Below, in pieces: positions 13,624 through 61,271 of a stretch of DNA of 64,000 nt; the first letter of the stretch is position 1; each line of letters opens with the position of its first letter. The position numbers were made by a program, and so were the translations under genes. The notes under the pieces were generated by a model, which saw nothing but the letters and a program-made list of their open reading frames with translations, had not been told where the DNA came from and made no database searches. This stretch comes from an uncultured Solirubrobacteraceae bacterium (GTDB lineage Bacteria; Actinomycetota; Thermoleophilia; Solirubrobacterales; Solirubrobacteraceae): contig CAWFME010000007.1 of assembly GCA_963816955.1 (NCBI GenBank), positions 16,883 to 80,882 of the forward strand, read 5' to 3'.

Positions 13624-15177
13624 ATGTGGCGGCGGGTGGCCGGTGCGAGCCTTCGGCCCGTGCGGCGCGCGCGCGGAGAGCTGGGCCAGACGGCGGTCGA
13701 GTACGGGGGCATCCTGGCGGTGATCGCGGTCGTCTTCGTGGCGCTGTTCGCCACGCCGCTCGGCGACGACGTGTCCTGCACGGCGCAGCGCGCCGTCGCC
13801 CAGGTGCTCGACTCGGACCCGCCCGGGTGTGCCGGCGGCGGGGGCGGGGAGGGGCGGGCGGCCACGGGCGACCCGGACGCGGACACGGACGGCGACGGCG
13901 TCCCGGACGCGGCCGAGCGCGAGGCCGGCACGGACCCGGCGAAGGCCGACAGCGACGGCGACGGGCTCAGCGACCGCGAGGAGCTCGAGCTCGGCACGAA
14001 CCCGACGGCCGTCGACACGGACGGCGACGGCGCGCTCGACGGGCAGGAGCTCGAGGCCGACTCGGATCTGTTCGCGACCGACACGGACGGCGACGGCCAC
14101 CCCGACGGGGACGACGGCGACCCGCTCACCTACGACGGCGGCGCCGACGACGCCGTCGCGGGCTTCGTCTGCGGCGACTCGTCCGCGCTGTTCTGCCCGG
14201 ACGAGGACGCGGGGTCGCGCGGCACTACGGAGTACATCTTCGGCCAGATCGCGAGCGGGCTGCTCGCGCTGGGCGACGTCCGCGACGGCATCGACGCGCT
14301 CGCGAGAGGGAAGTTCGGCGACGCGTTCTGGGCCGCGGTGGGCATCGTCCCCGCCGTCGGCGACGCGGCCAAGATCGGCAAGAAGGTCCGCGACCTCGTC
14401 AAGAGGTTCCCCGGCCGACGCGCGGAGGCCATGGGGGTCATCTTCAAGCTGTTCCCTGAAGGGAAGCTGCGCCAGGTCGCGCTCGACGCGGCGACCGACG
14501 GCGGCTACAGCGCGCTGAAGTCGAAGGGGCTCGGCGACGACGCGATCAGGCGGCTGGCGGAGAAGGGCAACGACCTCCGGCGGCTCGCCGACAACGCGCG
14601 CCTGGGCTCGCGCACGCTCGACCCGACCGAGGCGAAGGCGATCGACGGCGCGGTCGCCCAGCACTGGCCGAGCGCCGCGATGCGCTCGGAGGCCTACGGC
14701 GTCGAGACGGCGCTGGCGGAGCTGCGGCGCAACCCGAACATCGAGATCCTCCACACGGGCCGGCCGGGCCCGGGCAAGCCGGTCAACGGCCCCGACATCG
14801 TCGCCTATGACCGTTCCACGGGGCGGACGATCGTCGTCGAGGCCAAGAACACGGACGGCGGCAAGCCGCTCTCGCGCACGCGGCTTCGCTCCACCGCCGG
14901 CGGGCAGCGGGTCACGCAGACCTCGCCGGACTGGCTGCGCAACAACCCGGAGCGCTACCTGAAGGCGCTGCGCCAGTCGCCCGACGCCGGCGACCGCGAG
15001 GCCGCGCGCCGGCTCGAGGACATCATCGACGACGCCGACCCCTACGACGTCGTGGTCGTCGGCAGCAGGCCGAACGGGCAGGGCGGCTACGGTACGCGCG
15101 TGGACGACGCGGTCGGCGAGATCCGGGCGGGCGGGCAGGTTCAGGACGTGCAGGTCATCGACGTGCAGCGGCCCTAG
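13624..15177 (+). CDS. polymorphic-toxin-like protein: Flp-prepilin-type leader + TSP3 repeats + pre-toxin linker + PD-(D/E)xK nuclease-like C-terminus
   Basis: aa 21-45 G/QTAVEYGGILAVIAVVFVALF give the Flp G-x4-EY motif plus a hydrophobic helix. aa 83-166 hold four or more D-x-D-x-DG-x-x-D repeats. aa 236-254 WAAVGIVPAVGDAAKIGKK are pre-toxin TG-like. aa 355-408 SEAYGVE...GPDIVAYDRSTGRTIVVEAK give the E...PD-x15-E-x-K pattern. Confidence 0.7.
   Translation: MWRRVAGASLRPVRRARGELGQTAVEYGGILAVIAVVFVALFATPLGDDVSCTAQRAVAQVLDSDPPGCAGGGGGEGRAATGDPDADTDGDGVPDAAEREAGTDPAKADSDGDGLSDREELELGTNPTAVDTDGDGALDGQELEADSDLFATDTDGDGHPDGDDGDPLTYDGGADDAVAGFVCGDSSALFCPDEDAGSRGTTEYIFGQIASGLLALGDVRDGIDALARGKFGDAFWAAVGIVPAVGDAAKIGKKVRDLVKRFPGRRAEAMGVIFKLFPEGKLRQVALDAATDGGYSALKSKGLGDDAIRRLAEKGNDLRRLADNARLGSRTLDPTEAKAIDGAVAQHWPSAAMRSEAYGVETALAELRRNPNIEILHTGRPGPGKPVNGPDIVAYDRSTGRTIVVEAKNTDGGKPLSRTRLRSTAGGQRVTQTSPDWLRNNPERYLKALRQSPDAGDREAARRLEDIIDDADPYDVVVVGSRPNGQGGYGTRVDDAVGEIRAGGQVQDVQVIDVQRP
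13870..14121 (+). repeat. in-frame thrombospondin type-3-like calcium-binding repeats inside the toxin gene
   Basis: DPDADTDGDGVPDAAE / DPAKADSDGDGLSDREE / NPTAVDTDGDGALDGQE / FATDTDGDGHPDGDD. Confidence 0.75.
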
Positions 15178-15179
15178 CG

Positions 15180-15827
15180 ATGGCGTGGCCACCCACCCGC
15201 GAGGCCCTCGAGCGTGCCCGCGAGGAGCTGGAGCAGCGGGTCGCCGAGCGCCCGAGGGCGCGGCTGCTCGAGCCCCTGGCGCGCACCCACCGCTGGCTCG
15301 ACGAGCGCGAGGCGGCCTCGCGGCGCTTCCGCGAGGCGGCGGACGACGTCGAACGCGTGCTGGAGCGCCACGGCCGCGAGGACGCGTCGCGGATCGCGCA
15401 GGTCGGCTCCCTGCTGTGGCGGGCTGCGGAGGAAGACCTCGCGCAGCCGTGGCTGCAGCGCGCGCTTCGCGCCGGCCCGGCGCGCGACGCCGCCGCCGAG
15501 CTGCACTACCTGGCCGGGGCCTTCGGGCCGGCCGCCGCGCTCGCGCGCGAGGCCTCCGAGGACCCCGACGATCGCCCGTACCCGCGGGCGGAGGCGATCG
15601 AAGTGCTCGCGATCGCCCGGCGCGACGCCGACGGCGACCGGGCCACCCGCGCCCGCGAGGTGTTCGCAGACCTCATCCACCGGGAGCGGACGCCGCCCTA
15701 CGAGGAGTCCGGCTCGGCGGGGCTGTCGCTGTTCGACTGGTTCGAGGAGGCGGCGCTGATCGAGGCCTCGCTGCACGAGGAGCGCCAGCCGGACCACGCG
15801 GCGCTGCTGGGCCTGCTCGGCGGCTAG
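15180..15827 (+). CDS. candidate cognate immunity protein (all-alpha, cytoplasmic), hypothetical
   Basis: The ATG lies 3 nt after the toxin TAG. 215 aa, Ala/Glu/Arg/Leu-rich helical, with no signal peptide or TM. The call rests on position immediately 3' of a toxin module only. Confidence 0.45.
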   Translation: MAWPPTREALERAREELEQRVAERPRARLLEPLARTHRWLDEREAASRRFREAADDVERVLERHGREDASRIAQVGSLLWRAAEEDLAQPWLQRALRAGPARDAAAELHYLAGAFGPAAALAREASEDPDDRPYPRAEAIEVLAIARRDADGDRATRAREVFADLIHRERTPPYEESGSAGLSLFDWFEEAALIEASLHEERQPDHAALLGLLGG

Positions 15828-17512
15828 CGGACCTGCACGCGCACGGTCCGGGTGGCGCCCGTCTCGTACGGGAAGCCGGGCGCGCGGCGGATACGCGCGC
15901 GGAACACGAACAGGCGCCCGCGCGAGCCCGCGGAGCGGAACCGGTAGCGGCCCTGGAAGGAGCCGCGGCGGTTCGTCGTCGCGTCCGCGAACGCCTGGAA
16001 GCGCCGCGCGCCGCGCAGCTTGCCCTGGAGGACGATCGGCACTCCGGCGCGGCGGACGCCTCTCAGGCGCCCGCTCAGGCGGACGGAGCGGCCGACGGCC
16101 GTCGCGCGCGGACGGACCCGCAGCGTGGCGGCGGCCCGCGCCTTCAGCGTCAGGTAGCCGTTGGCGGCGAAGCGGGCGTCGTTGGCCCGCGCGCGCCAGG
16201 CGAACTGGAGCTGGCGCGACGCCTTCGCCCGCACGGTCACGCGGAACGAGCCGTCGGACCGGGTGAGGATGCCGCGGCGGTCGATCGCCCCGGCTCCCTG
16301 GCGCAGGTCGCGCGTGAGCAGGCGAAGCTCGGCGCCGGCGATCGGGTTGCCGTCGGCGTTGATCAGCCGGCCGCGGATGCCCACCTTGCGGTTCTGGCGG
16401 ACGGTCTGGCGCGGGCGCTTGGTGTTGGAGAAGCGCAGGATCACGCGCGCGGGCTCCTTGCCGCCGGTGCCGTTCGGGGCGCCGCGGTCGGACGGCGTGA
16501 TCACGTCGACGGTGTAGGGCCCGCGGTCGACGACGTTGCCGCCCGCGTCGATGAAGCGGATCACGAGCGTCCGGCGGCCGACCTGCAGCGAGCTTGCGCG
16601 GAGCGTCTCGCGGCTCAGGTCCGGGCACGGCTTGGCGAGCCGGGACGAGCACGTGGCGCCACGGTCCGTGCGCTGCTCGCCCGCCTCGTAGGTGAAGCCC
16701 ACGTCGTAGTCCTCCGCGCCGACGACCCGCGGGCCGGCCGGGTCGGTGAGGTCGACGATCTCCACGCGCTCGATGCCCGCGTTGTCGGCCGCGGACACGG
16801 TCACCGGGTCCGAGCCGTCGCGATAGCCGCCTGCGAGCAGGCCGTCCGCCTCGACGGAGGCGCTCGACGGAGGCGTCGGGTCGGAGACCGTGACCTTCGC
16901 GCCGTAGAAGACGTTGTAGATCCGCCCGCCCGGGCCGACCTGGCACGGGGCGGTGTTGCGGCGGTAGCAGCCCACTCGCAGCAGCAGCGTCCGGCCGTCG
17001 TTGCGGTAGGCGGTCAGGGCGGGGAAGCTCGCGCGGGTGACGGTGGCGCGGGCGAGGCGCGTCGGGTTGGCGTACCAGCTGCGCTGCGCGGTGAGCCGGG
17101 AGCGGGTGGCGTCCTCGTAGTCGCCGGCGCCGGCGAAGACGACGTTCCCGAGCTGGTAGAGCGTGAAGAACGGGCGCGTCCCCGACACCGCCGGGTTGCC
17201 GTAGTCGAGCTGCCGGCTCAATGAGAAGTCGGTGATCGCCGTCCCGGCCGGGCTCGTGAACGTCAGGCCGGCGATCGCACCCGCCGCCGAGCGGGTGCCG
17301 GCGTCGACCCGGATCCCGATCAGCTGGCTCGCTCCCGGGCAGGTCGTGTCGACGACGATCCCGGGGCTCGCGAGCGCCGACCACGAGCGGTTGTCGAAGA
17401 CGGTGCCCGCCGAGTTGCAGAAGTGGACGTCGTAGGTGCCGGCTTGGGCGGGCGCGGCGAGCGCGAGCGCGGCGACGGGGGCCGCGGCCGCGGCGAGCAG
17501 GCGCCGCCTCAA
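15824..17512 (-). CDS. secreted multidomain protein, paralog A (Cys-rich N-domain, Ig-like middle, two CarboxypepD_reg-like C-domains)
   Basis: A TTG start at 17510-17512 overlaps the TGA of paralog B (TTGA). It gives (M)RRRLLAAAAAPVAALALAAPAQA/GTYDVHFC, a signal peptide parallel to that of paralog B. The upstream 500 codons of ORF 15824..19099 are an alternate frame of paralog B. Confidence 0.7.
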   Translation of the reverse strand: MRRRLLAAAAAPVAALALAAPAQAGTYDVHFCNSAGTVFDNRSWSALASPGIVVDTTCPGASQLIGIRVDAGTRSAAGAIAGLTFTSPAGTAITDFSLSRQLDYGNPAVSGTRPFFTLYQLGNVVFAGAGDYEDATRSRLTAQRSWYANPTRLARATVTRASFPALTAYRNDGRTLLLRVGCYRRNTAPCQVGPGGRIYNVFYGAKVTVSDPTPPSSASVEADGLLAGGYRDGSDPVTVSAADNAGIERVEIVDLTDPAGPRVVGAEDYDVGFTYEAGEQRTDRGATCSSRLAKPCPDLSRETLRASSLQVGRRTLVIRFIDAGGNVVDRGPYTVDVITPSDRGAPNGTGGKEPARVILRFSNTKRPRQTVRQNRKVGIRGRLINADGNPIAGAELRLLTRDLRQGAGAIDRRGILTRSDGSFRVTVRAKASRQLQFAWRARANDARFAANGYLTLKARAAATLRVRPRATAVGRSVRLSGRLRGVRRAGVPIVLQGKLRGARRFQAFADATTNRRGSFQGRYRFRSAGSRGRLFVFRARIRRAPGFPYETGATRTVRVQVR

Positions 17513-19194
17513 CGGACCCGCACCCTCGCGATCCGCGAGTAGCCGCCCCAGTAGGCGTAGCCGCTGTCGCGCTCGATCTTGATCCGGAACTGGAACGTGC
17601 GGCCGCGCGAGGACGGGTCGCGGAAGACGTAGCTGACGCGGAACCGGCCGTCGCGGCCGATCGTGCCGTCGGCGAAGGTGCGGAAGCGCCCGCGCTTGCC
17701 CGGCCGGCCCTGGGCGACGATGTCGACGCTGCGCCGCGGGCGCTTGCCGGCGAGCCGGCCCGTGAGCCTCACCCGCTGGCCGACGCGGACGCTGTGGGGA
17801 CGCGGCCGGATCGTCGCCGTGGCGCGCGCGAGCAGCGTCACGTAGCCGTTGGCGGCGTAGCGGACGTCGTTGACGTGCGAGGCCCAGGCGAACTGGTACA
17901 GCCGCGAGGCGTAGGCGGTGGCGCGGTAGCGGAACCGGCCCTCGCCGTCCGTCGTCACATAGGAGCGCAGCTTCGCCTCGTCGTCGTCGATGTCGCGCGT
18001 GAGCACGGCGACGCGCGCGTTCGCGATCGGTTGGCCGCCGGCGTTGAGCAGCTGGCCGGCGACGTCGGCCTTGGAGAGGAAGCCGATCGTGCGTCGCGTG
18101 CGGCTGTTGCCGCGCGTGAAGCGGGCGGTGATCGTGGCCGGCTCGGTGGCGTTGGCGCCGTTGAGGGCGCCGCGATCGGACGGGCTCGCGACCTCGGCCT
18201 CGTAAGGGCCGCGCTCGACGACGTTGCGGCCGGCGTCGTAGGCCCGCACGAGCAGCTTGCGCCGGCCGGCCTGCAGCGAGGTCGGGCGCAGCGTCTCCCC
18301 GTAGGAGAGCTGCGGGCACGGGGAGGCGAAGCGGAAGCTGCAGCTCGCGCCGCGGTCGGTCTGCACGCCGCCCGCGTCCGTGTCGTAGTCCTCGGCGCCG
18401 ACGACGGTCGGCGTGCCGGTGACGTCGACGATCTCGACCCGGCGGATGCCGGAGGGGTCCGAGACCTTCACGCGCACGGGGTCGGAGCCGTCGACCCGGC
18501 CGCCGCGCAGCAGGCCGTCGGCGTCGACGGTGAGGTCGCGCGGCGCGGCGGGATCGTTGACGTCGATCTCCGCGCCGCGGATGTTGTTGGCGATGTGCGC
18601 GGCGCCGGTCGAGCTGCACGGCGTGCCGCGCTGCGTGCAGCCGATCCGCACGGTCAGGCTGCGGGCGCCTCCCTGATATGAGGCGAGCGCGGGGAAGCTG
18701 GCCCGGGACACGGTCACGATGCCCGTGTCGGCGTTGCCCTCCGGATAGCCGTACCAGCGCCCCTGGCCGTTGAGCCGGTTGCGCGTGCCGTCGGGGTAGT
18801 TGCCCGCGCCCTCGATCGCGGTCCCGCCGAGCGCGGTGATCACGTGGTAGCGGTGCGTGCCGTCCTGCGTCGGGTTGCGGAAGATGATCCGCTTCGTCAG
18901 CCGGAAGTCGGAGATCGAGGTCCCGGACGGGGTCCGGAACTGCAGCGAGGCCTGGGCCCCGTCGGCGGTGCGGCCACCCGGCGTCTGGTTGAGGCCGATG
19001 TTGTCGTCGCCCGCGCAGTCCTGGTCGGCGGTGATCGAGTTCACGGGAGCGATCAGCTCCCACGAGCGGTTGTCCCAGCTGCGCCCGGCCGCGGTGCACG
19101 CGTACACCGTGTAGACGCCGGCCTGCGCCGGCGCCGCCGCCGCGAGCGCCACCAAGCTCCCGGCCAGCGCCGCGATGCCCCCTGTCCGTCTCAT
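17509..19194 (-). CDS. secreted multidomain protein, paralog B
   Basis: 561 aa. Signal peptide MRRTGGIAALAGSLVALAAAAPAQA/GVYTVYAC. Colinear with paralog A through shared blocks DRGA(T/S)CS, PSDRGA(P/L)NG, G(R/Q)L(I/L)NA(D/G)G(N/Q)PIA and FAWR/FAWA. Confidence 0.75.
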   Translation of the reverse strand: MRRTGGIAALAGSLVALAAAAPAQAGVYTVYACTAAGRSWDNRSWELIAPVNSITADQDCAGDDNIGLNQTPGGRTADGAQASLQFRTPSGTSISDFRLTKRIIFRNPTQDGTHRYHVITALGGTAIEGAGNYPDGTRNRLNGQGRWYGYPEGNADTGIVTVSRASFPALASYQGGARSLTVRIGCTQRGTPCSSTGAAHIANNIRGAEIDVNDPAAPRDLTVDADGLLRGGRVDGSDPVRVKVSDPSGIRRVEIVDVTGTPTVVGAEDYDTDAGGVQTDRGASCSFRFASPCPQLSYGETLRPTSLQAGRRKLLVRAYDAGRNVVERGPYEAEVASPSDRGALNGANATEPATITARFTRGNSRTRRTIGFLSKADVAGQLLNAGGQPIANARVAVLTRDIDDDEAKLRSYVTTDGEGRFRYRATAYASRLYQFAWASHVNDVRYAANGYVTLLARATATIRPRPHSVRVGQRVRLTGRLAGKRPRRSVDIVAQGRPGKRGRFRTFADGTIGRDGRFRVSYVFRDPSSRGRTFQFRIKIERDSGYAYWGGYSRIARVRVR

Positions 19195-25618: not shown

Positions 25619-25847
25619 ATGCAGACGGGCACCGCCACCGGCGAGGTCATCAGGGCGGGGAGCTGGAGATCAGGCCCTCGGAGTACCTGGCGCTCGCGGG
25701 CGGCCGGGCCCTGACGATCTCGCTCAAGCAGCTGGAGCTGCTGGCCGCCTGCCGGGATGGACGTTCATCCACACGCACTTCGGGTTCGGCTACCGGTTCC
25801 AGCCCGAGCGTTCACACGTCTTTCACAACACGGCCACAGGTCGGTAA
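25619..25847 (+). pseudogene. relic of an OmpR-family response regulator DNA-binding domain
   Basis: GEVIRAG, then GELEIRPSEYLALAGGRALTISLKQLELLAA, then PGWTFIHTHFGFGYRFQPE lie in three frames, with about 50 codons missing between the second and third. Compare the intact paralog AGELEIRQDQFQAFAAGRNVDLTRREFELIALL ... DWRYIHTHFGIGYRFDPE at 30418..31188. Confidence 0.6.
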
Positions 25848-25905
25848 CAGGAGCGGGGCTTGCCCTTGCGAGCCTCGCTCTCGACGAATGAAGAGAGAGG
25901 GAACG

Positions 25906-26871
25906 ATGACAACTTCCAAGACGCTCCTGCCCGCGCTCGCGCTGGCACTGGCGCTCGGCGTCGCCGCGTGCGGCTCCGATGACGAGGGCACCGCGTCCGG
26001 CAGCGGTGGCGGTGGCGGCGATCAGGCCCTGTCGGGCAAGATCGCGATCGACGGCTCCTCCACGGTCGCGCCGTTCGCGCAGGCGGCCGCCGAGCTGTTC
26101 AACGAGGAGAACCCCGACGTGCAGATCACGGTCGGTGCCTCCGGCACCGGCGGCGGCTTCGAGAAGTTCTGCGCCGGTGAGACCGATATCTCCGACGCCT
26201 CGCGTCCGATCAAGGACGACGAGGAGGTCCCCGTCTGCGAGAAGAACTCGGTCTCCTACGGCGAGGTCCAGATCGCCAACGACGGCATCGCGGTCGTGAC
26301 CAACAAGGCGCTCGCCGTCGACTGCCTCACCACCGACGAGCTCAAGCAGATCTGGAACAAGGGCTCGAAGGTCAAGAGCCTCGCCGAGGTCAAGCCGGAT
26401 CTCCCGGACACGGAGCTTTCGCTCTACGGGCCGGGCACCGACTCCGGCACGTTCGACTTCTTCACCGACGAGATCAACGGCGAGGAGGGCGTCACCCGCG
26501 AGGACTACGAGCCCTCCGAGGACGACAACCAGCTCGTCACCGGCGTCGAGGGTGACGACGGCGGCCTCGGCTACTTCGGCTTCTCCTACTACGAGGGCGC
26601 GCAGGACCAGCTCAACCTGGTCGGCGTGGACGCCGGCGACGGCTGCGTGAAGCCGAGCGCCGAGACGATCCAGGACGGCTCCTACAAGCCGCTGGCCCGC
26701 CCCCTGTTCATGTACCCGAGCTCGAAGGCGGTCGCCCGCCCCGAGGTCAAGGCGTTCATGGAGTTCGTGGTCGCCAACCAGGCCGACATCGCGGACGCCG
26801 CGAAGATCGTGCCGCTGACGGACGAGCAGGCCACCAAGGCGAAGTCCGACCTGCAGGCCGCCCAGCAGTGA
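25906..26871 (+). CDS. pstS: phosphate ABC transporter substrate-binding lipoprotein PstS
   Basis: ATG 25906 lies downstream of a GAGAGGG RBS. Lipobox [17 protein letters not shown] and [12 protein letters not shown] are PstS/PBP-like-2 motifs. Confidence 0.95.
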
Positions 26872-27785
26872 CATCCCTCGCGTACACCCGTACGCGCCGC
26901 AGCGTCGGCGAGCAGGCCGTCAGATACGGCCTGTTCGCCGCCGCGGCGGTCTCCATCCTCACGACCGTGCTGATCGTGCTCTCGCTGCTGCGGGAGACGA
27001 TCGCGTTCTTCGGCGACGTCCCGATCGGCGACTTCCTGTTCGGCACCAAGTGGACGCCGCTGCTGGCCGGCGACCAGCAGTCCTTTGGCGTGATCCCGCT
27101 GCTGACGGGCACGCTGTACCTGACCGCGATCGGCCTCGTCGTCGCGATCCCGCTCGGCCTGCTGGCGGCGATCTACCTCGCCGAGTACGCGCCGCAGCGC
27201 GTGCGCAAGGTCGTCAAGCCCGTGCTCGAGCTGCTGGCCGGCGTCCCGACGATCGTCTTCGGCTACTTCGCCCTCGTCTTCTTCACCCCCGAGGTGCTGC
27301 GCGGCGTCCTCGGGCTCGAGGTCAACCAGTTCAACGCGCTCTCGGCCGGGATCATCCTCGGCCTGCTCGTTCTGCCGACGATCGCGTCGGTCGCCGAGGA
27401 CGCGCTGTCCGCCGTGCCCGCCTCGCTGCGCGAGGGCGCGTTCGGCCTCGGCGCGAGCAAGCTGCAGGTCTCGCTGCGGGTCGTCTTCCCGGCCGCCCTC
27501 TCGGGCGTCGTGGCGGCGCTGATCCTCGGCGCTTCGCGCGCGATCGGCGAGACCGTGATCATCCTCGTGGCCGGCGGTCAGGTCGCTCGTCTGGGCGTCG
27601 ACCCGACGGAGGGCTATCAGTCGATGGCCGCGTTCATCGCGGCCACCTCGCGCGGGGACATCCCGACGGGCTCGATCAAGTTCGAGACGATCTTCGTGGT
27701 CGGCATGCTCCTCTTCGTCATCACGCTCGCGCTGAACGCGCTGTCGATCCGGCTCGTCAACCGCTACCGCCAGGTCTACGAGTGA
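26868..27785 (+). CDS. pstC: phosphate ABC transporter permease PstC
   Basis: GTG 26868 overlaps the pstS TGA. Six TM segments. EAA-like loop EDALSAVPASLREGAFGLGASKLQ. Confidence 0.95.
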   Translation: MTSLAYTRTRRSVGEQAVRYGLFAAAAVSILTTVLIVLSLLRETIAFFGDVPIGDFLFGTKWTPLLAGDQQSFGVIPLLTGTLYLTAIGLVVAIPLGLLAAIYLAEYAPQRVRKVVKPVLELLAGVPTIVFGYFALVFFTPEVLRGVLGLEVNQFNALSAGIILGLLVLPTIASVAEDALSAVPASLREGAFGLGASKLQVSLRVVFPAALSGVVAALILGASRAIGETVIILVAGGQVARLGVDPTEGYQSMAAFIAATSRGDIPTGSIKFETIFVVGMLLFVITLALNALSIRLVNRYRQVYE

Positions 27786-28693
27786 CCGGCTTGCCCATCG
27801 CATCGATGGCGCGCCCGCAGGAGACAGCCCTGCCCCGTCCGTCGACCCGGGCCCGGATCGCCGACCTCCTCTTCCGCGCGGTCATGTACCTGTCGATCGC
27901 GGTCGGGTTCCTCGGGCTCGGCGCGATCCTCTTCGACGTCGCGCGCGACGGGCTGCCGCGGCTGTCGGTGGACTTCATCACCAACTTCCCGTCGCGGATC
28001 ATCCCGGAGCGCTCGGGCATCCAGTCCGCGCTCGTAGGGACGCTGTACCTGATGGCGATCTGCGCGGTGCTCGTGGTGCCGCTCGGCGTCGCCACGGCCG
28101 TCTACCTCGAGGAGTACGCCGACCGCCGCAAGTGGTTCAACCGGCTGATCGAGGTCAACATCCAGAACCTCGCGGCGGTGCCCTCGGTCGTCTACGGCAT
28201 CCTCGGGCTGGCGTTCATCGTGCGCGGCCCGCTCTCGATGGGGCGGGTCCTGCTGGCGGGCGGCATCACGCTCTCGCTGCTGGTCCTGCCCGTGGTGATC
28301 ATCGTCGCCCGCGAGGCGATCCGGGCCGTCCCGCCGTCGATCCGCGAGGGCTCGATGGCGCTCGGGGCGACCCAGTGGCAGACGATCTGGAAGCAGGTCC
28401 TGCCGGGCTCGGTGGCCGGCATCGCGACGGGCGTGATCCTCGCGCTCTCGCGCGCCATCGGCGAGACGGCGCCGCTGCTGATCATCGGCGCGGCCGTCTC
28501 CCCGCGCTTCAACCCGTCAGGGCTGTTCGAGTCCTTCACGGCGCTCCCGATCCAGATCTTCAGCTGGACGACGGACGCCGACCGGGAGTTCGTGAGCGCG
28601 GCGGCCGGGGCGATCCTCGTCCTGATGCTGCTGCTCGTGCTCATGAACTCCGTCGCGATCTTCCTCAGGAACCGCTATGAGCAGAAGTGGTGA
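27782..28693 (+). CDS. pstA: phosphate ABC transporter permease PstA
   Basis: GTG 27782 overlaps the pstC TGA (alternative ATG at 27806). [24 protein letters not shown] permease loop. The 5' part of ORF 27050..28693 is an alternate frame of pstC. Confidence 0.93.
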
Positions 28694-29582
28694 TGACCCG
28701 ATGTCAGAGAAGCTGAGCGCCCGCCCCGAGGCGTCCACCCCCAGCACCGGACGGCGTTTCGAGCCCGCCCGGGCCGCCGCGCCCGACGGGGCGGTGGCCG
28801 TAGCGGAGCCGATCTTCGACGTCAGCGAGGTGAACGTCTTCTATGGCGAGCATCGCGCTATCCGCGACGTCACGCTGAGCATCCAGCGCAACGAGATCAC
28901 CGCGCTGATCGGCCCGTCGGGCTGCGGCAAGTCGACCTTCATCCGCTGCCTGAACCGGATGAACGACCTGATCCCGACCGCGCGGGTGGACGGCCACGTC
29001 GTCTACCACGGCGAGGACCTCTACGACGCGCAGATCGACCCCGTCCAGGTGCGCAAGCGGATCGGCATGGTCTTCCAGAAGCCGAACCCGTTCCCGAAGT
29101 CGATCTACGACAACATCGCCTTCGGCCCGCGCGTGATCGGGATGAAGGGCGACATGGACGAGATCGTGGAGTCCGCCCTGCGCCGCGCGGCGCTCTGGGA
29201 GGAGACCAAGGACCGCCTGAAGACCAACGCCTTCGGGATGTCCGGCGGCCAGCAGCAGCGCCTGTGCATCGCCCGCGCGCTCGCCACGGAGCCCGACGTG
29301 CTGCTGATGGACGAGCCGTGCTCCGCGCTGGACCCGATCTCCACGGGGCGGATCGAGGACCTGATGATGGAGCTCAAGGAGAACTACTCGATCGTCATCG
29401 TCACCCACAACATGCAGCAGGCCGCGCGCGTGTCGGACATGACCGCGTTCTTCACGGTCGAGCTCGACGAGACGGCGAAGGCCCGCACGGGCCACGTGGT
29501 CGAGTACGACGTGACGGACAAGATCTTCACGAACCCCGAGGACAAGCGCACCGAGGACTACGTCACGGGCAAGTTCGGCTGA
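28677..29582 (+). CDS. pstB: phosphate ABC transporter ATP-binding protein PstB
   Basis: [34 protein letters not shown] and [12 protein letters not shown]. The start is 28677 or ATG 28701. Confidence 0.95.
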
Positions 29583-30265
29583 TGGCACGCGAGGCGCACC
29601 GGCTCCGCTTCCAGGACGAGCTGCGCACGCTCGAGGACCAGGCGCTCGGCGCGCTGGACCTCGTCCTGACGGCGCTCGACCGCACGCTCGAGGCGCTCGA
29701 GCACCAGGACATCGAGCTCGCCTCGGTCGTGGTCGCCGACGACGACCGCCTCGATGGCCGCTACCTGGAGGTCCACCAGGGGCTGCTGTCGCTGCTCGCG
29801 CTGCAGGCGCCCGTGGCCGGCGACCTGCGGGTCGTGGCGGCGCTGCTGCACGTGATCCGCTGTGCGGAGCGGATGGGCGACCAGTGCGTGAACATCGCGA
29901 AGCTCCTGCCGATCGTGGGCCACGACGCGCCGGTCGACGAGCAGATGCGCACCAAGATCGCCAGGATGGGCGTGCTCGCGCGCTCCGAGGTCGAGCAGGC
30001 CAAGCAGGCGTTCCTGTCGCGCGACGTGGACCTCGCCCAGGACCTCGTGCGCCAGGACGAGGCCGTCAACAAGCTCAACCGCGAGTGCTTCCAGCGCGCG
30101 GTCGAGACCGGCGGAGACGTCGACGCCCGCGAGTGGGCGATGACGATGATGCTCGTGTCGCGCGCGCTCGAGCGGATCGGCGACAACGCCGTGGACATCG
30201 GCGAGCAGGTCGCGTTCGTGGTCACGGGGCTGTTCCGGGAGTTCTCGGACGCCTCGCGCGCCTAG
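29582..30265 (+). CDS. phoU: phosphate signaling complex protein PhoU
   Basis: ATG 29582 overlaps the pstB TGA by 1 nt. Two PhoU repeats with ERMGDQCVNIA and ERIGDNAVDIG motifs. Confidence 0.93.
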   Translation: MAREAHRLRFQDELRTLEDQALGALDLVLTALDRTLEALEHQDIELASVVVADDDRLDGRYLEVHQGLLSLLALQAPVAGDLRVVAALLHVIRCAERMGDQCVNIAKLLPIVGHDAPVDEQMRTKIARMGVLARSEVEQAKQAFLSRDVDLAQDLVRQDEAVNKLNRECFQRAVETGGDVDAREWAMTMMLVSRALERIGDNAVDIGEQVAFVVTGLFREFSDASRA

Positions 30266-30417
30266 CGGCGCCGCGGCCCGCCCGTGCCGGGCGGCCGCTC
30301 CCGCCCGCTCCGCGCGGCCCTCCTGCCCGCGGTTTGCGGGCGAGTTGTGACCATCCTGTTACGCGTGGGGGGATTTCGGGCCCGGCCGTCGTCGCTCGGC
30401 ACTATCCTGCGTGGCAG

Positions 30418-31188
30418 ATGACCCCGACGCCGTCACCGGCCCGGATCGCCGTCCTCGACAACGATTCCGGCTTCGTGCAGGTCCTCACCAAGCGGCTCGA
30501 GGCCGCCGACTGGCAGTACCGCGTCCTCGCCTCGCCGGTCCCGCTCGACGTGCTGATCTCGATGCGGCTCAACGCCCTCGTGGTCGACCCTGCCGTGCTC
30601 GGCCCGGCCGCCTGGAGCTACCTCGAGAAGCTCTGCGCCCGGCTCCCGCAGCTCGGCGTCGTCGTGTGCACCGGCCAGTCGACCGTCGCCCAGCGCGTGC
30701 GCGGGCTGCGGCTCGGCGCCGACGACTGGGTCACCAAGCCGTGCCACCCGGAGGAGGTCATCGCACGCGCGGAGGCCGTCATCCGGCGCCGCCGGCGGGC
30801 CGAGATGCGCGCGGACGCCGAGCCCGTGGTGGCCGGCGAGCTGGAGATCCGCCAGGACCAGTTCCAGGCCTTCGCCGCCGGCCGCAACGTGGACCTCACC
30901 CGCCGCGAGTTCGAGCTGATCGCTCTGTTGAGCGGCCTCGGCGGCCAGGTCATCCCGCGCGAGGAGATCTACGAGCGGGTCTGGGGCTACGCGATGGTCC
31001 ACGGGGACCGCTCCGTGGACGTGTTCGTGCGCAAGCTGCGCCAGAAGCTCGAGAAGGTCTCGCCGGACTGGCGCTACATCCACACGCACTTCGGGATCGG
31101 CTACCGGTTCGACCCCGAGCCCGTCGAGGGCAGCGCGGCGGCATTGCCCGCGCCTCACGCCGCGGTCCCCGAGCCCGTCCACGCGTAG
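30418..31188 (+). CDS. OmpR/PhoB-family response regulator (orphan, no adjacent histidine kinase)
   Basis: Receiver domain (IAVLDND, ALVVDPA, VVCTGQ, GADDWVTKP) plus winged-helix output (LTRREFELIALL, VDVFVRKLRQKL, HTHFGIGYRF). Confidence 0.88.
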   Translation: MTPTPSPARIAVLDNDSGFVQVLTKRLEAADWQYRVLASPVPLDVLISMRLNALVVDPAVLGPAAWSYLEKLCARLPQLGVVVCTGQSTVAQRVRGLRLGADDWVTKPCHPEEVIARAEAVIRRRRRAEMRADAEPVVAGELEIRQDQFQAFAAGRNVDLTRREFELIALLSGLGGQVIPREEIYERVWGYAMVHGDRSVDVFVRKLRQKLEKVSPDWRYIHTHFGIGYRFDPEPVEGSAAALPAPHAAVPEPVHA

Positions 31189-31212: not shown

Positions 31213-31581
31213 GTGGGCCCCGACCGCCGCACGCACCTCCGCAACGTCGCGATCATCGTCCTGCTCGCGGTGGTGGTCTGGCAGGTCCCGGGCGGCGACC
31301 GCGCGGGCTCGACGATCGCCAACCTGCTGTCGCTCATCTTCATCGGCGGCATCCTCTTCCTCGGCTACCGGCTCTACATGGAGAACCGAGAGACCATCTT
31401 CGGCCTCGAGGAGCGCCAGCGGGGCGTGCTCTACGCCGGCGCGGCGCTGATCGCGATCACGCTCGTCGCCACCAGCCGGATGTGGGGCGCCGGCGGCATC
31501 GGCGCGCTCGTGTGGCTGATGATGCTCGGGGCGGGCGTCTACGCCATCGTGGGCGTCTGGCGCGCGTACCGCGAGTACTAG
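31213..31581 (+). CDS. integral membrane protein (4 TM), hypothetical
   Basis: 122 aa with four hydrophobic segments and GC3-rich codons. GTG start. Confidence 0.6.
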   Translation: MGPDRRTHLRNVAIIVLLAVVVWQVPGGDRAGSTIANLLSLIFIGGILFLGYRLYMENRETIFGLEERQRGVLYAGAALIAITLVATSRMWGAGGIGALVWLMMLGAGVYAIVGVWRAYREY

Positions 31582-31637
31582 CCCCCGCTCTGCCCGCCCC
31601 CGCTCGTGCGGTTCCGCGGGTTAGGCGTGGTCAGGCT

Positions 31638-31686
31638 GCCGAGTGGCATCTGAGTCGCGGTATGCGCGACGGAGGTGCCACTCGGC
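31638..31686. other. two-tier perfect hairpin in the AT-richer intergenic region upstream of the Tad-like genes
   Basis: GCCGAGTGGCA (31638-31648) pairs with TGCCACTCGGC (31676-31686). The loop contains a nested GTCGCG-gtatg-CGCGAC hairpin. No U-tract follows. Confidence 0.5.
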
Positions 31687-31785
31687 GCGTCTAGCGGGTC
31701 TCGGTGTCCATTTGGTTGCAGTTTCCTTGCGGACTCGTGACGTTCGCGTCTAGTTCTGTTCTGGTTTTCGCGCGACGGTGGCGCG

Positions 31786-32117
31786 GTGCATTCGGAGAAC
31801 GGACAAGCCGCGGTCGAGCTGGCGGCGCTGTTGCCGTGGGTGGCCGCGGTGCTGCTCGTCGCGTGGCAGCTCGTGGTGGCCGGCGACGCGCACTCCTCGG
31901 CGGCGGTCGCGGCTCGCGCCGCCGCGCGCGCCGCAGCGTCGGTGACGACCCGGCGACCGCCGCACGTGCCCGGCTCCCGCAGCACCTGCGCCACGGGCTG
32001 CGCGTGCGCTCCCGGGCTGACGGCACCGTGTCGGTGTCCGTGCGCGTTCCGGCGCTCGCGGCCGCGCTCGACCTCGGCCGCGTCCGCGCCGAAGCCTCCC
32101 TGGGGGCGATGCCATGA
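31786..32117 (+). pseudogene. TadE-like pseudopilin, apparent -1 frameshift near 31925-31940
   Basis: The frame from GTG 31786 gives (M)HSENGQAAVELAALLPWVAAVLLVAWQLVVAGDAHSSAAVAARAAARAAA. The paralog-like C-terminus SVGDDPATAARARLPQHLRHGLRVRSRADGTVSVSVRVPALAAALDLGRVRAEA lies in the frame ending at TGA 32115-32117. The switch falls in a GCCGCGCGCGCCGC tract. Confidence 0.55.
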
Positions 32118-33136
32118 CCGGCGAGCGCGGCCAGGCCACGGTCGAGCTCGCGGCCCTGCTGCCGTTGCTGGCGGTGATCGCCCTTGCGGCCTACGCGCTG
32201 CTCGCGGGCCTGGCGGCCGGCGAGCAGGCCGGCGTGGCAGCCGAGGCCGGCGCGATCGCGCTGCTCCAAGACCGCGACCCCGTGGCCGCAGCCCGCGCCG
32301 CGCTGTCCGACGGCACGCGCGCGTCGGTGCGCGTGGAGGGCCGCCGAGTCAGCGTCGCCGTACGCCCGCGGGTCCCGCTCGTCGCGCGGCTCCTGCGCAC
32401 GCGGGTCACCGCCGCACGCCGGACCGGAGCCCGCGCCGTGAGCCTCCGTGCCCGTGCTCTCGACTACTTCGTCGAGCCCCGCACGCCTGCTGAGGCCGGC
32501 GCCTACGTCGCTCCAGCACCTGCGGCGCCGGCGGCGCCGCATGCGCAGGCCGCCACGCGGTTCCCGCTGCGGGCGGCGGTGCTCGGCTCGCCTGCCGATG
32601 GAGTGCCGATCGGCGCGCTGCTCGCGAACGCGCTGCGCTCCGCGGCGGGCGCATCGACGGCGGTGCTGGCGGTGTGGGCTCCGGATGTGCGACCGCCGGC
32701 CTTCCGGGGCGGCCCGGCGACGCTGGCCGCGTCACGGCTCGCCGCACGGTTGTCGGCCCGCGGGCTCTCCGCAGCGGGCCGTGGGCGGTTGGCGTGGATG
32801 GCGCTCGACGACCATCCAGTCGCCGCAGCGGTGGCGGCCCGGCGGGCGGCGGGCGCGGTCGATGTCCCGCTCGTGGTCGTGCTGGCGGGCCCGCGCTGCG
32901 ACGTCGTCGAGGGCGTCCTCGCGGAGCAGGACCTCGTGGTCGTCGCCTGCGCCGAGTCGGACGGAGCGCTGGCCCGGCTCGCCGTCGCGGGCTGCGCCAC
33001 GGCGGCGCTCGCCTGCGCGCCTCCGCCGCCCGGCCCGTCGCGCTGGCTCGCTCGCTCCGGCCTCGCCGGCGCTCGCGGGCTCCCCGCCCAGGTCCGTTCG
33101 CTGGTCGGCGCGCTCGGTTCTGAGGCCGCATGGTGA
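32114..33136 (+). CDS. TadE-like pseudopilin with C-terminal degenerate ParA/CpaE(TadZ)-like domain (or two unresolved in-frame genes)
   Basis: N-terminus MTGERGQATVELAALLPLLAVIALAAYALL has the G-x4-E prepilin-like motif. From about aa 109 (in-frame GTG 32438) a Rossmann-like pattern follows (RAAVLGSPADGVPIGALLANAL, AVLAVWAPD, VPLVVVLAGPRCDVV, DLVVVACAESDGALARL). It resembles MinD/ParA topology but lacks a Walker A lysine motif. Confidence 0.55.
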   Translation: MTGERGQATVELAALLPLLAVIALAAYALLAGLAAGEQAGVAAEAGAIALLQDRDPVAAARAALSDGTRASVRVEGRRVSVAVRPRVPLVARLLRTRVTAARRTGARAVSLRARALDYFVEPRTPAEAGAYVAPAPAAPAAPHAQAATRFPLRAAVLGSPADGVPIGALLANALRSAAGASTAVLAVWAPDVRPPAFRGGPATLAASRLAARLSARGLSAAGRGRLAWMALDDHPVAAAVAARRAAGAVDVPLVVVLAGPRCDVVEGVLAEQDLVVVACAESDGALARLAVAGCATAALACAPPPPGPSRWLARSGLAGARGLPAQVRSLVGALGSEAAW

Positions 33137-34407
33137 GCATGCGCGGGCAGGCGTCGATCGTGCTCGTCGGCGGGCTCGCCGCGATCCTCGTCGGAGCGCT
33201 CGTGCTCGGGATGGTGGCCCGTGCGCTGGGACGCGAGGGCGCGGCTCAGCGCGCGGCGGACCTGTCGGCGCTCGCGGGCGCCCGGGCGATGCGGGAGGCG
33301 TATCCGCGGCTGTTCGAGCCGGCGATGTTCGACGGCCGCCCGAACCCGCGGCATCTCGACCGGGCGGCGTATCTCGAGCTGGGGAGCGCCGCCGCTCGCG
33401 CCGCGGCGCGCGGGAACGGCACCGTGGTGAGCGAGCTGGCGTTCCCGGACGCCTCGTCGTTCGCGCCGGTGCGGATTCGCGTCGCGGTGCGCGAGCGGAT
33501 CGCGATCGAGCGCGGCCGGGAGCGCCGCGCGGTCGGCGTGGGGGCGAGCGCCGTCGCGGAGCTCTCGCCGCTCGGGCCGGGAGGATTGCCGGCCGGCGGC
33601 GGCTACGACGGCCCGCTGGAGCACCGCCAGGGCAAGCCGATGCGGCCGGACGTCGCGCGGGCGTTCGACCGGATGGAGCGTGCCGCCCGCGCGGACGGCG
33701 TGTCGCTGTTGATCGCCAGCGCGTACCGCTCCGACGCCGAGCAAGAGATCCTCTGGCGCCGCAACCCGGACCCCCGCTGGGTCGCCCGGCCCGGCGAGTC
33801 GCTGCACCGTCACGGCACCGAGCTCGACCTCGGCCCGCCCGCGGCTCATGCGTGGCTCGCGGCCCATGCGGAGGCGTTCCACTTCGTCCAGCGCTATCCC
33901 CACGAGAAATGGCATTACGGCTACACGCTCAACGCGCGATCCACGCCCCGGGGCGCGGGAGACGGTCGCGCGATCCCGAGCTTCGTGCCCGGGCGCTTCG
34001 CACCGGCGCTGGCGCGCGCGGCGCAGCGCTGGAACGTGTCCGCCGCGCTGCTCGCGGCGCAGCTGTACGCGGAGAGCAACTTCAATCCGTTCGCGACCAG
34101 CCCTGTGGGCGCGCAGGGCATCGCGCAGTTCATGCCGGAGACCGCTCGCGCGATGGGGCTCGACGATCCCTTCGACGCACCCGAGGCGATCGATGCCCAG
34201 GCCCGGCTGATGCGCGACCTGCTGCGGCGCTTCGCCGCCGTCCCGCTCGCGCTGGCCGCGTACAACGCCGGCCCCGGGCCGGTGGAGGCGTGCGGCTGCG
34301 TGCCGCCGTACCCCGAGACGCGCGGCTACGTCGCCCGCATCCTCGGGCTGCTCGGCGGGATGGGTGAGCTCGGCCGCGGCGAGCTCGTGGTGAGGCTTGT
34401 GAAGTGA
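33130..34407 (+). CDS. TadG-like N-terminal anchor fused to VanY-type (M15B) D,D-carboxypeptidase and SLT lytic transglycosylase domains
   Basis: aa 5-55 RGQASIVLVGGLAAILVGALVLG...AAQRAADLSALAGARA are Tad/TadG-like. aa 195-265 SAYRS..Q, ESLHRHGTELDL and HEKWHYGY carry the M15B zinc and catalytic motifs. aa 300-385 LYAESNFNP, GAQGIAQFMP and AAYNAGPG are the SLT motifs with the catalytic Glu. Confidence 0.8.
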   Translation: MVSMRGQASIVLVGGLAAILVGALVLGMVARALGREGAAQRAADLSALAGARAMREAYPRLFEPAMFDGRPNPRHLDRAAYLELGSAAARAAARGNGTVVSELAFPDASSFAPVRIRVAVRERIAIERGRERRAVGVGASAVAELSPLGPGGLPAGGGYDGPLEHRQGKPMRPDVARAFDRMERAARADGVSLLIASAYRSDAEQEILWRRNPDPRWVARPGESLHRHGTELDLGPPAAHAWLAAHAEAFHFVQRYPHEKWHYGYTLNARSTPRGAGDGRAIPSFVPGRFAPALARAAQRWNVSAALLAAQLYAESNFNPFATSPVGAQGIAQFMPETARAMGLDDPFDAPEAIDAQARLMRDLLRRFAAVPLALAAYNAGPGPVEACGCVPPYPETRGYVARILGLLGGMGELGRGELVVRLVK

Positions 34408-34432: not shown

Positions 34433-34552
34433 ATGGCCGCGCTGTTCGCCATCGGCGGCGTCGTCGGGATCTGCATCCTCGGCTACTTCTTCGGCGCCGA
34501 GTCGAGGCCGGACTTCCTCGACCCGCGTCACAAGACCGGCCGCTGGATCTGA
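34433..34552 (+). CDS. small membrane protein (39 aa), hypothetical
   Basis: ATG 34433 to TGA 34550-34552: MAALFAIGGVVGICILGYFFGAESRPDFLDPRHKTGRWI. One TM segment and GC3-rich codons. Too short for the ORF track. Confidence 0.4.
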   Translation: MAALFAIGGVVGICILGYFFGAESRPDFLDPRHKTGRWI

Positions 34553-60998: not shown

Positions 60999-61271
60999 AT
61001 GGCACTCGAGCTCCTGGTCGTCCTCGTCGTCCTGGCGCTGATCGTGCTGGTCGTCAGCGCGCCCCTGCGCCGCCCCGGCGCCGCCGACGCGGAGGAGAGC
61101 GCCGAGCGCGCCGAGCTCGAGGCCGCGCGCGAGGCCAAGTACCGAGAGATCCGCGACGCCGACCTCGACCACCGCACGGGCAAGCTCTCCGACGCCGATT
61201 GGCGCGCCCAGGACCGCGCGCTGAGAGCGGAGGCCGTGGAGATCCTGCGCCGGCTCGACGAGCTCGGCTAG
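60999..61271 (+). CDS. small N-terminally anchored coiled-coil protein, likely co-transcribed with ccmF
   Basis: 90 aa. TM LELLVVLVVLALIVLVVSA, then a charged helical region. Confidence 0.55.
   Translation: MALELLVVLVVLALIVLVVSAPLRRPGAADAEESAERAELEAAREAKYREIRDADLDHRTGKLSDADWRAQDRALRAEAVEILRRLDELG

Follow-up and report, generated by a model that had tools for sequence, protein, structure and literature searches.

How a type IV filament gets through the thick wall of a single-membrane (monoderm) bacterium is an acknowledged open question (PMC6916266), and it comes up with a group of four genes at positions 31786-34407 (plus strand) of a 64,000-nucleotide stretch of contig CAWFME010000007.1 from an uncultured Solirubrobacteraceae bacterium; this whole stretch is called the window below. 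Two of the genes encode small proteins with prepilin leaders of the Tad type, the third a soluble protein that we call X, and the fourth a large protein in which a pilin-like N-terminal domain is joined to two peptidoglycan hydrolase domains. What kind of system is this, and what might it serve? The TadE-TadF-TadG trio that closes tad loci is a known kind of gene set; what appears to be new here, judging from sequence comparisons, is that such a Tad minor-pilin set includes a fusion of pilin and hydrolase and a MinD-like partner that has no P-loop. With moderate confidence, we read the operon as an accessory minor-pilin ('tip' or priming) set of a Tad (type IVc) filament, encoded apart from the motor.

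A conserved operon of four genes

The operon consists of TadE1 (31786-32117), TadE2 (32114-32441), X (32438-33136), and a TadG-like/VanY/SLT gene (33130-34407; the hydrolase gene below), all on the plus strand. The last three gene junctions overlap, by ATGA, GTGA, and then 7 nt, and these overlapping stop and start codons are consistent with an operon. An earlier reading, made from the sequence only, had described three consecutive genes with prepilin-like N-termini. All three N-termini are present (NGQAAVELAALLP at 31786, RGQATVELAALLP at 32114, and RGQASIVLVGGL at 33130), and they lie far from chance, with the leader pattern kept in at least 25 species-level relatives; the gene count, in turn, has to be raised to four. 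In each of three related loci with independent gene calls (L001, L002, and L003), the region is divided into four genes, encoding a TadE-like protein of 110-122 residues, a second small protein of 101-114, X of 213-234, and a VanY-SLT protein of 426-436.

Set against its two closest relatives, L002 and L003, the window is one base short between 31938 and 31939 in TadE1, which moves the coding sequence from frame 1 to frame 3, and carries an additional base near 32414, toward the end of TadE2. The second indel removes the stop at 32441, so that TadE2 reads through into X; the ancestral TadE2 C-terminus (...AGPEPAP*) is still legible in the other frame, ending at 32441, and the GTG start of X at 32438 overlaps that ancestral stop as GTGA. 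The resulting 340-codon open reading frame (ORF) was rejected as a single gene, being TadE2 joined to a separate 232-residue X by comparison with L001-L003. We likewise rejected X-TadG and TadE2-X fusions as real proteins, the longer homologs being frameshift read-throughs or expansions of a Pro-rich linker.

We consider it quite likely that both TadE indels are long-read assembly errors, because the relatives are intact, because other genes of the window change frame midway, namely CcmF (~60430), iPGM (~45300), and a small Trans_reg_C regulator gene (25651-25844), the protein sequence of each continuing sensibly in another frame, and because the related loci, which are long-read soil metagenome-assembled genomes (MAGs) with Flye-style contig names, contain split genes throughout. 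The other explanation, that the frameshifts are real and the module is decaying in this organism, with TadE1 and TadE2 as pseudogenes or switched off by slippage, gains from the fact that two single-base indels within ~480 nt in adjacent small genes exceed what a uniform error rate would lead one to expect. The operon region is, however, the most G+C-rich stretch of the window (78%, against ~73% for the window), and the halves of both TadE genes are still 79-93% identical to the intact L002 genes (79-91% for TadE1), with no further decay; together with the frameshifts elsewhere in the window and the split genes in related MAGs, this makes decay unlikely.

A scan for the X family, taking one genome per species, returned 27 loci, one of which (L029) is on the same contig as L001; with L001-L003 added and this duplicate removed, 29 distinct related loci were available. 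Wherever the contig reaches, these loci share the order pst-phoU, response regulator, 122-residue protein, TadE1, TadE2, X, and TadG-VanY-SLT, and the operon is kept in every soil Solirubrobacteraceae genome examined, at a fixed place between pst-phoU and uvrC-gap-pgk. The TadE1/TadE2 stop/start overlap is retained in nearly all related loci. The best-conserved part is the hydrolase domains, with 58-91% identity vs ~50% for TadE. In L001, L012, and L018, which are more distantly related, a few kilobases are inserted upstream of the hydrolase gene, the L001 insert consisting of two unrelated genes. L012 also has a second, partial VanY-SLT copy (14422-15149 of that locus), ~3 kb downstream of its main hydrolase gene. 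All but one of the scan loci are labeled Solirubrobacteraceae or Solirubrobacterales. The exception, L005 (CAVUOF010000029.1), is binned as Acidobacteriota, yet it has full synteny (response regulator, 122-residue protein, TadE genes, X, and hydrolase gene) and is probably a mis-binned contig.

TadE1 and TadE2 resemble Tad-type minor pilins

TadE1 (~110 residues once the frameshift is repaired) and TadE2 (~108 residues) both carry a class III leader, with Gly at -1, Glu at +5, and a hydrophobic helix of ~20 residues. The processing site reads G/QAAVE in TadE1, where it is followed by LP and the hydrophobic helix, and G/QATVE in TadE2, the start codon of which overlaps the TadE1 stop. Across 40 TadE1/TadE2 orthologs, the pattern G-Q-x3-E followed by L-P and a hydrophobic helix is invariant, and the G, Q, E(+5), and L-P are constant among species that are otherwise ~50% identical. 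Pfam TadE (PF07811) is matched by 23 of the 40 orthologs at E<=0.01 (best 1.3e-8), the NCBIfam model TadE_Rv3655c (NF041390) by 22, and the Rv3654c-type model by eight. In the window itself, NF041390 aligns to TadE1 over nearly its full length, below the 40-bit cut-off, and the merged TadE2-X ORF has no Pfam match. Taken together, the leaders and family matches support an assignment of TadE1 and TadE2 as Tad-type minor pilins.

A TadG-like pilin domain fused to two wall hydrolases

The product of the last gene has a TadG-like pilin domain (residues 1-148) followed by a VanY/M15B peptidase domain (171-265) and an SLT lytic transglycosylase domain (295-386), as delimited with Pfam and AlphaFold2 (AF2). 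Both enzyme domains exceed their curated Pfam cut-offs (VanY, PF02557, 58.1 bits vs 25; SLT, PF01464, 68.7 bits vs 21.3). The link between a pseudopilin and a cell-wall hydrolase drawn by the sequence-only reading is borne out, in the form of one minor pilin fused to both enzymes. The catalytic motifs are intact: the M15 ligand and catalytic residues H226, D233, E259, and H262, along with S224 (motifs SxHxxGxxxD and ExxH), as well as the SLT motifs E315-S316 and Y378-N379-x-G381 (AYNxG), are invariant in 49 orthologs. Foldseek matched the M15 domain to LdcB and VanY at probability 1.00, and the SLT domain aligns to solved soluble lytic transglycosylases, its best PDB match being a phage tape-measure transglycosylase.

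The N-terminal domain matches TIGR03816 (the Rv3654c family) weakly, and Pfam Tad (PF13400) is recorded for several orthologs. In the AF2 model it forms a helix at residues 5-62 and a second at 78-95, followed by a three-stranded beta sheet that extends to residue 148, at a predicted local distance difference test score (pLDDT) of ~70-95, and as modeled it is a pilin-like domain and not a bare anchor. A fold search aimed at this domain returned VanY-type matches only, there being no comparable solved Tad minor pilin in the PDB and the remainder of the model being of low confidence. The hydrolase domains were modeled poorly because the alignment was shallow. The leader of this protein keeps the G-Q and the hydrophobic helix, and its +5 position is always hydrophobic and never Glu in at least 25 species-level relatives. 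This absence of the +5 Glu speaks more for an anchor that is retained at the base than for a subunit of the tip, without settling the matter.

X may be a MinD/ParA-like protein without a nucleotide-binding loop

X (32438-33136) is a soluble 232-residue protein, and it is a separate gene in L001-L003. Its core domain is preceded only by a short conserved peptide at the N-terminus (LRARAxxFVEP) and a linker that is Pro-rich and variable; no signal peptide or membrane helix was found. Searches with X alone or with 26 diverse members gave no Pfam, NCBIfam, or PDB sequence-profile match, and the family comprises 759 clusters at 50% identity (E<=1e-3). The genomic context of one distant member, on a 1.7-kb contig, held nothing useful downstream. 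The AF2 model of X (pLDDT 88.4) was matched by Foldseek to MinD (1hyq) and a ParA-family protein (3ea0) at probability 0.99 and to FlhG at 0.98, with further matches to FleN, Soj, BcsQ, NifH, and MeaB; the best matches are all NTPases of the SIMIBI class. A GK[ST]-type Walker A loop after strand 1 is absent in 43 close and 26 diverse members of the family. As modeled, X thus resembles a MinD/ParA-like fold that has lost its nucleotide-binding loop, and it would represent a previously undescribed family of its own, of P-loop-less MinD/ParA-like proteins.

No Tad engine near the operon

In six-frame translations, no Walker A motif of the T2SSE/TadA type occurs in the window or within 10 kb of the operon in any of the 29 related loci. 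A looser Walker A pattern found RapZ, ABC, and STAND proteins in the window and related loci; in the coding ORFs of the window, Walker A motifs belong to ABC transporters only, with RapZ added in the looser scan. Examined ORF by ORF, doubtful cases in the window gave a weak ATP-grasp-like match, esterases, Tgt, an M48 peptidase, a CGNR zinc-finger regulator, or no match, and the remaining genes are recognizable as housekeeping from their translations. The sequence-only reading had stated that the window holds no ATPase, platform protein, prepilin peptidase, or short Flp pilin, and no gene for any of these turned up in our ORF-by-ORF and Walker A searches. Nor did a six-frame scan for leaders reveal a short Flp pilin in the window: it returned a single G-x4-E-Y followed by a hydrophobic helix, at 13684, which was the only Flp-type leader claimed, and its only other G-x4-E match was TadE2 at 32129 (G-x4-E-L), TadE1 being excluded by the filter.

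TadE1 and TadE2 are therefore not part of a locus with tadA, tadB, and tadC, whether in the window or within 10 kb in the related loci, and the description of the system as dispersed, with the operon lying apart from a secretion ATPase and platform, holds over the same range. Its description as non-canonical is partly fair, in view of the fused hydrolases and of a MinD-like gene without a P-loop. In Actinobacteria, Tad loci are common (PMC6668835). Our search of the literature on Tad systems or pili in Solirubrobacter, Conexibacter, and Thermoleophilia found nothing relevant, and these genera are missing from the supplementary lists of the type IV filament survey.

Proposed function and alternatives

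The accessory minor-pilin reading draws on the TadE/TadG-type leaders, the pilin-like fold, and the dispersed tip clusters published for Myxococcus. TadE1 and TadE2 would be prepilins cut after the conserved Gly by a TadV-type peptidase encoded elsewhere, and together with the pilin-like N-domain of the hydrolase protein they would form a complex that primes filament assembly. The hydrolase protein would be a TadG-type large minor pilin or a membrane anchor, with the M15 peptidase and the lytic transglycosylase as its modular C-terminal part, and at the assembly site or the filament tip these enzymes may cut the thick wall of the single-membrane cell locally, letting the filament through. On the cytoplasmic side, X could act as a TadZ-like docking or positioning factor that couples the set to the machine or fixes its site. 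Another locus would encode the motor ATPase, the platform proteins, the peptidase, and the major Flp pilin; this engine is assumed, because no engine gene was seen in the window or the related loci.

Several results weigh against this reading. Neither the window nor ~600 kb of related loci yielded tadA/cpaF, tadB/C, tadV, or a short flp. Both TadE genes of the window carry frameshifts, and the repaired TadE1 scores 21.4 bits on Pfam TadE, under the cut-off of 22.9 (the intact L002 ortholog scores 25.6 bits, above it); the N-terminus of the hydrolase protein likewise scores 16.1 bits on Pfam Tad, under the cut-off of 22.3. The fold matches of X are weak (E 3e-3 to 7e-2, template modeling scores of 0.3-0.47), and X has neither the Walker A loop nor the receiver-like N-domain of a true TadZ. 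Finally, carboxypeptidase activity is typical of M15B enzymes, and by itself it does not open the wall.

The operon might instead be a wall-remodeling module with no present-day filament, in which the TadE/TadG N-termini serve as anchors, a relic of a lost Tad system, and X positions the hydrolase, for example at a pole or septum, for growth or division. The lack of engine genes in the window and within 10 kb in the 29 loci would fit such a module, as would the fixed housekeeping position from pst-phoU to uvrC-gap-pgk, the fold match of X to MinD/ParA-type positioning factors, and the stronger conservation of the hydrolase domains than of TadE. We regard it as rather unlikely all the same, given that two separate genes keep Gly(-1), Gln(+1), and Glu(+5) without exception across the family, a hallmark of peptidase processing and filament assembly that a plain anchor does not need, that the N-domain of the hydrolase protein is modeled as a pilin-like fold, and that the same genomes keep a second family with an invariant Flp-type leader, encoded in the window at 13.6 kb, which argues for a prepilin peptidase. 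A different role for the same enzymes would be offensive: a TadE1/TadE2/TadG-hydrolase complex at the tip of an extended Tad pilus could cut the walls of neighbors on contact, in the manner of the Kil system. In Myxococcus, dispersed TadE/F/G-like tip complexes are needed for contact-dependent killing and the TadG-like member shows a modular C-terminal domain (PMC12075869); the module here is a pair of wall hydrolases with intact catalytic residues, and the closest solved structure to the SLT domain belongs to a wall-penetrating device. Against this, the hydrolase protein has no Glu5 in any species, a feature more in keeping with a retained membrane anchor than with a filament subunit; each genome locus has a single copy, its core position is fixed, and neither variable alternative tips nor an adjacent immunity-like gene are present; and there is no evidence of predation in this group. 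We hold an offensive tip to be highly improbable. Distinctly unlikely as well, in our view, is the boldest extension of the minor-pilin reading, an effector-delivery device in which a Tad filament with a pilin-hydrolase tip or base complex drills its own wall or lyses neighbors, and the same machine and peptidase also handle large Flp-leader proteins such as the TSP3/nuclease-like protein at 13.6 kb.

Relation to known systems

The nearest precedent for an accessory minor-pilin set is in Myxococcus, which has three extra TadE/F/G-like 'tip' clusters away from the Kil Tad machine (PMC12075869). Like these, the operon described here encodes together two small pilin-like proteins with class III leaders and one large protein with a modular C-terminal domain, and like these it can lie away from the machine genes. 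Unlike the Myxococcus tips, it has a pair of peptidoglycan hydrolases as its module in place of an adhesin or of a domain whose function is unknown, a MinD/ParA-like gene sits between the pilin genes, the operon is single-copy at a fixed site of the core genome, and no machine is identified.

Among actinobacterial systems, the closest likeness is to Rv3660c-Rv3654c of Mycobacterium tuberculosis and tad-1/tad-2 of Micrococcus luteus (PMC4322843, PMC9531140), in that the best NCBIfam models are the Rv3655c-type TadE and Rv3654c-type models and the tadE/F-tadG order found at the distal end of those clusters recurs here. The gene for the prepilin peptidase, tadV, is normally unlinked in actinobacteria (PMC4322843), as it is in those two species, and we assume the same here. 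The differences are that the pilin-like genes of M. tuberculosis and M. luteus directly follow tadZ/tadA/tadB/tadC/flp, whereas here they stand alone, and that the Rv3654c-type protein is small there and is extended by VanY and SLT here. In the M. luteus study, TadE/F were proposed to form an accessory structure that spans the wall (PMC4322843). Comparison with TadZ/CpaE, the MinD/ParA/FleN-type hub of Tad systems (PMC6668835 and its references 47 and 48), cuts both ways: X is, like TadZ, predicted to be a cytoplasmic protein of MinD/ParA-like fold encoded among tad genes, but it lacks a Walker A loop and a receiver-like N-domain, and its sequence shows no detectable similarity to TadZ.

Wall hydrolases dedicated to a particular machine offer a further comparison.

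They include VirB1 in type IV secretion, PleA for the pili and flagellum of Caulobacter, FlgJ in the flagellum, TagX in type VI secretion, and CwlT, PrgK, and TcpG in Gram-positive conjugation. Each is a lytic transglycosylase, often with a peptidase domain and membrane-anchored, that is encoded with envelope-spanning parts and opens the wall locally. The hydrolase protein is similar to VirB1, PleA, FlgJ, and the two-domain enzymes of Gram-positive conjugation in being a lytic transglycosylase encoded with envelope-machine parts. We know of no hydrolase in this list that is fused to a pilin-like domain, and of none for a Tad system of a single-membrane bacterium.

The pilin-hydrolase fusion bears on a real open question, and the functional steps that lead from it to a filament are all ones that we infer, the engine not having been located in the window or in the 10-kb surroundings of the 29 loci. 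If the accessory minor-pilin reading is true, a TadG-type/hydrolase fusion would offer a concrete, testable answer to filament passage in widespread soil bacteria, the customization of Tad pili by dispersed minor pilins (PMC12075869) would extend to actinobacteria, and a P-loop-less MinD/ParA-like family of 759 clusters would join the repertoire of Tad-associated genes. If the engine is absent, the module would instead illustrate how parts of a pilin system can be put to new use in anchoring wall enzymes.

The Flp-leader protein at 13.6 kb

The sequence-only reading had proposed that the operon belongs to a dispersed Tad-related system whose major subunit or cargo could be a presumed toxin at 13.6 kb. 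This protein (13660-15177, plus strand; 505 residues) has a G/QTAVEY leader, calcium-binding repeats of the Pfam TSP3_bac family, and a C-terminal GPD...EAK region, and it is encoded outside the operon. In 25 homologs, G9, Q10, E14, P378, D379, E394, A395, and K396 are invariant or nearly so, and the family as a whole has an invariant G/Q-x3-E-[Y/L/W] leader. The GPD...EAK region is compatible with a PD-(D/E)xK nuclease fold, an assignment that we offer tentatively in that no family is matched. Among Solirubrobacteraceae, the cultured S. ginsenosidimutans being one of them, the family shows conservation along its entire length, and in the window and three homolog contexts it is followed by a partner gene encoding 207-303 residues; the window copy encodes a tetratricopeptide-repeat-like protein of 215 residues, and the pair occupies 13660-15827. 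One of the three contexts (L032) keeps the neighborhood seen in the window, and the two from S. ginsenosidimutans (L031 and L034) differ.

Could this protein be the missing subunit? Its leader resembles those of TadE1 and TadE2, one homolog is automatically named 'Flp pilus assembly pilin', the window has no short Flp pilin of its own, and both families are common in Solirubrobacteraceae, although co-presence in one bacterial family has no discriminating power. A major Flp pilin would be ~50-80 residues long and score above its profile cut-off; this protein is 505 residues long and scores a weak 15.8 bits on Flp_Fap (PF04964), against a cut-off of 32.2, and its TSP3 repeats and large C-terminal domain are not the design of a major pilin. 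It lies 18 kb from the operon with unrelated genes between, none of the three homolog contexts (L031, L032, and L034) has tad genes or the TadE operon within 10 kb, and the only motif shared upstream of the operon and the 13.6-kb gene is one 9-mer on opposite strands, which is at chance level. A role as major subunit is thus implausible on size, and with cargo included the proposed connection to the module is not supported; we consider it scarcely probable. The family could use the same prepilin peptidase as TadE1 and TadE2, and the shared leader argues for nothing more.

Directly downstream of the Flp-leader pair, two overlapping paralogous genes on the minus strand (15824-17512 and 17509-19155) encode secreted proteins of ~550 residues with weak CarboxypepD_reg-like matches.

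Upstream region and neighboring genes

The operon is preceded by an intergenic leader (31582-31785, plus strand). Within 31740-31785, ~30 nt before the TadE1 start, this leader contains a less G+C-rich stretch, GTCTAGTTCYGTTCTGG, in fuller form GTCTAGTTC(C/T)GTTCTGG, which the alignment with L002 and L003 shows to be kept in both and which may be a promoter or operator. Neither a sigma-70-like promoter nor an intrinsic terminator came out of a consensus scan of the operon region, and an Rfam scan of the same region gave nothing meaningful.

Codon-position gene calls and translations place pstS-pstC-pstA-pstB-phoU, an OmpR-type response regulator, and a 122-residue membrane protein upstream, in this order. 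The regulator (30418-31188, plus strand; Pfam Trans_reg_C and Response_reg) lies directly downstream of pstSCAB-phoU; this conserved neighbor is a possible regulator of the operon, and given the fixed place of the operon after pstSCAB-phoU and the regulator, control by phosphate supply is conceivable. The match to its receiver domain is weak, and no kinase gene is adjacent in the window (25651-31188) or in related loci. The multi-pass membrane protein of 122 residues (31213-31581, plus strand) has no significant Pfam match. Of the 29 distinct related loci, 28 have it in this place between the regulator and TadE1, at 52-92% identity, and the remaining one (L026) is a 2.4-kb contig whose first base already lies within TadE1. 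Either neighbor, the regulator or the TadE operon, may be the one to which it belongs, and its membership of the module is uncertain.

On the other side, a hydrophobic ORF of 39 residues (34433-34552, plus strand) begins 25 nt downstream of the hydrolase gene. L002 has this ORF at 97% identity, with a gene called there, and no copy was detected in more distant loci. In the window the ORF is followed by genes for a GNAT acetyltransferase, an inositol monophosphatase, a threonine aldolase, a luciferase-like oxidoreductase, and a secreted glycosidase-like protein, and further downstream by uvrC, rapZ, gap, pgk, and tpi. Elsewhere in the window, a minus-strand gene at 61268-62632 encodes a 454-residue protein that has no Pfam match and carries SMQRSAGNSAV in its N-terminal region, followed by a long uncharacterized domain.

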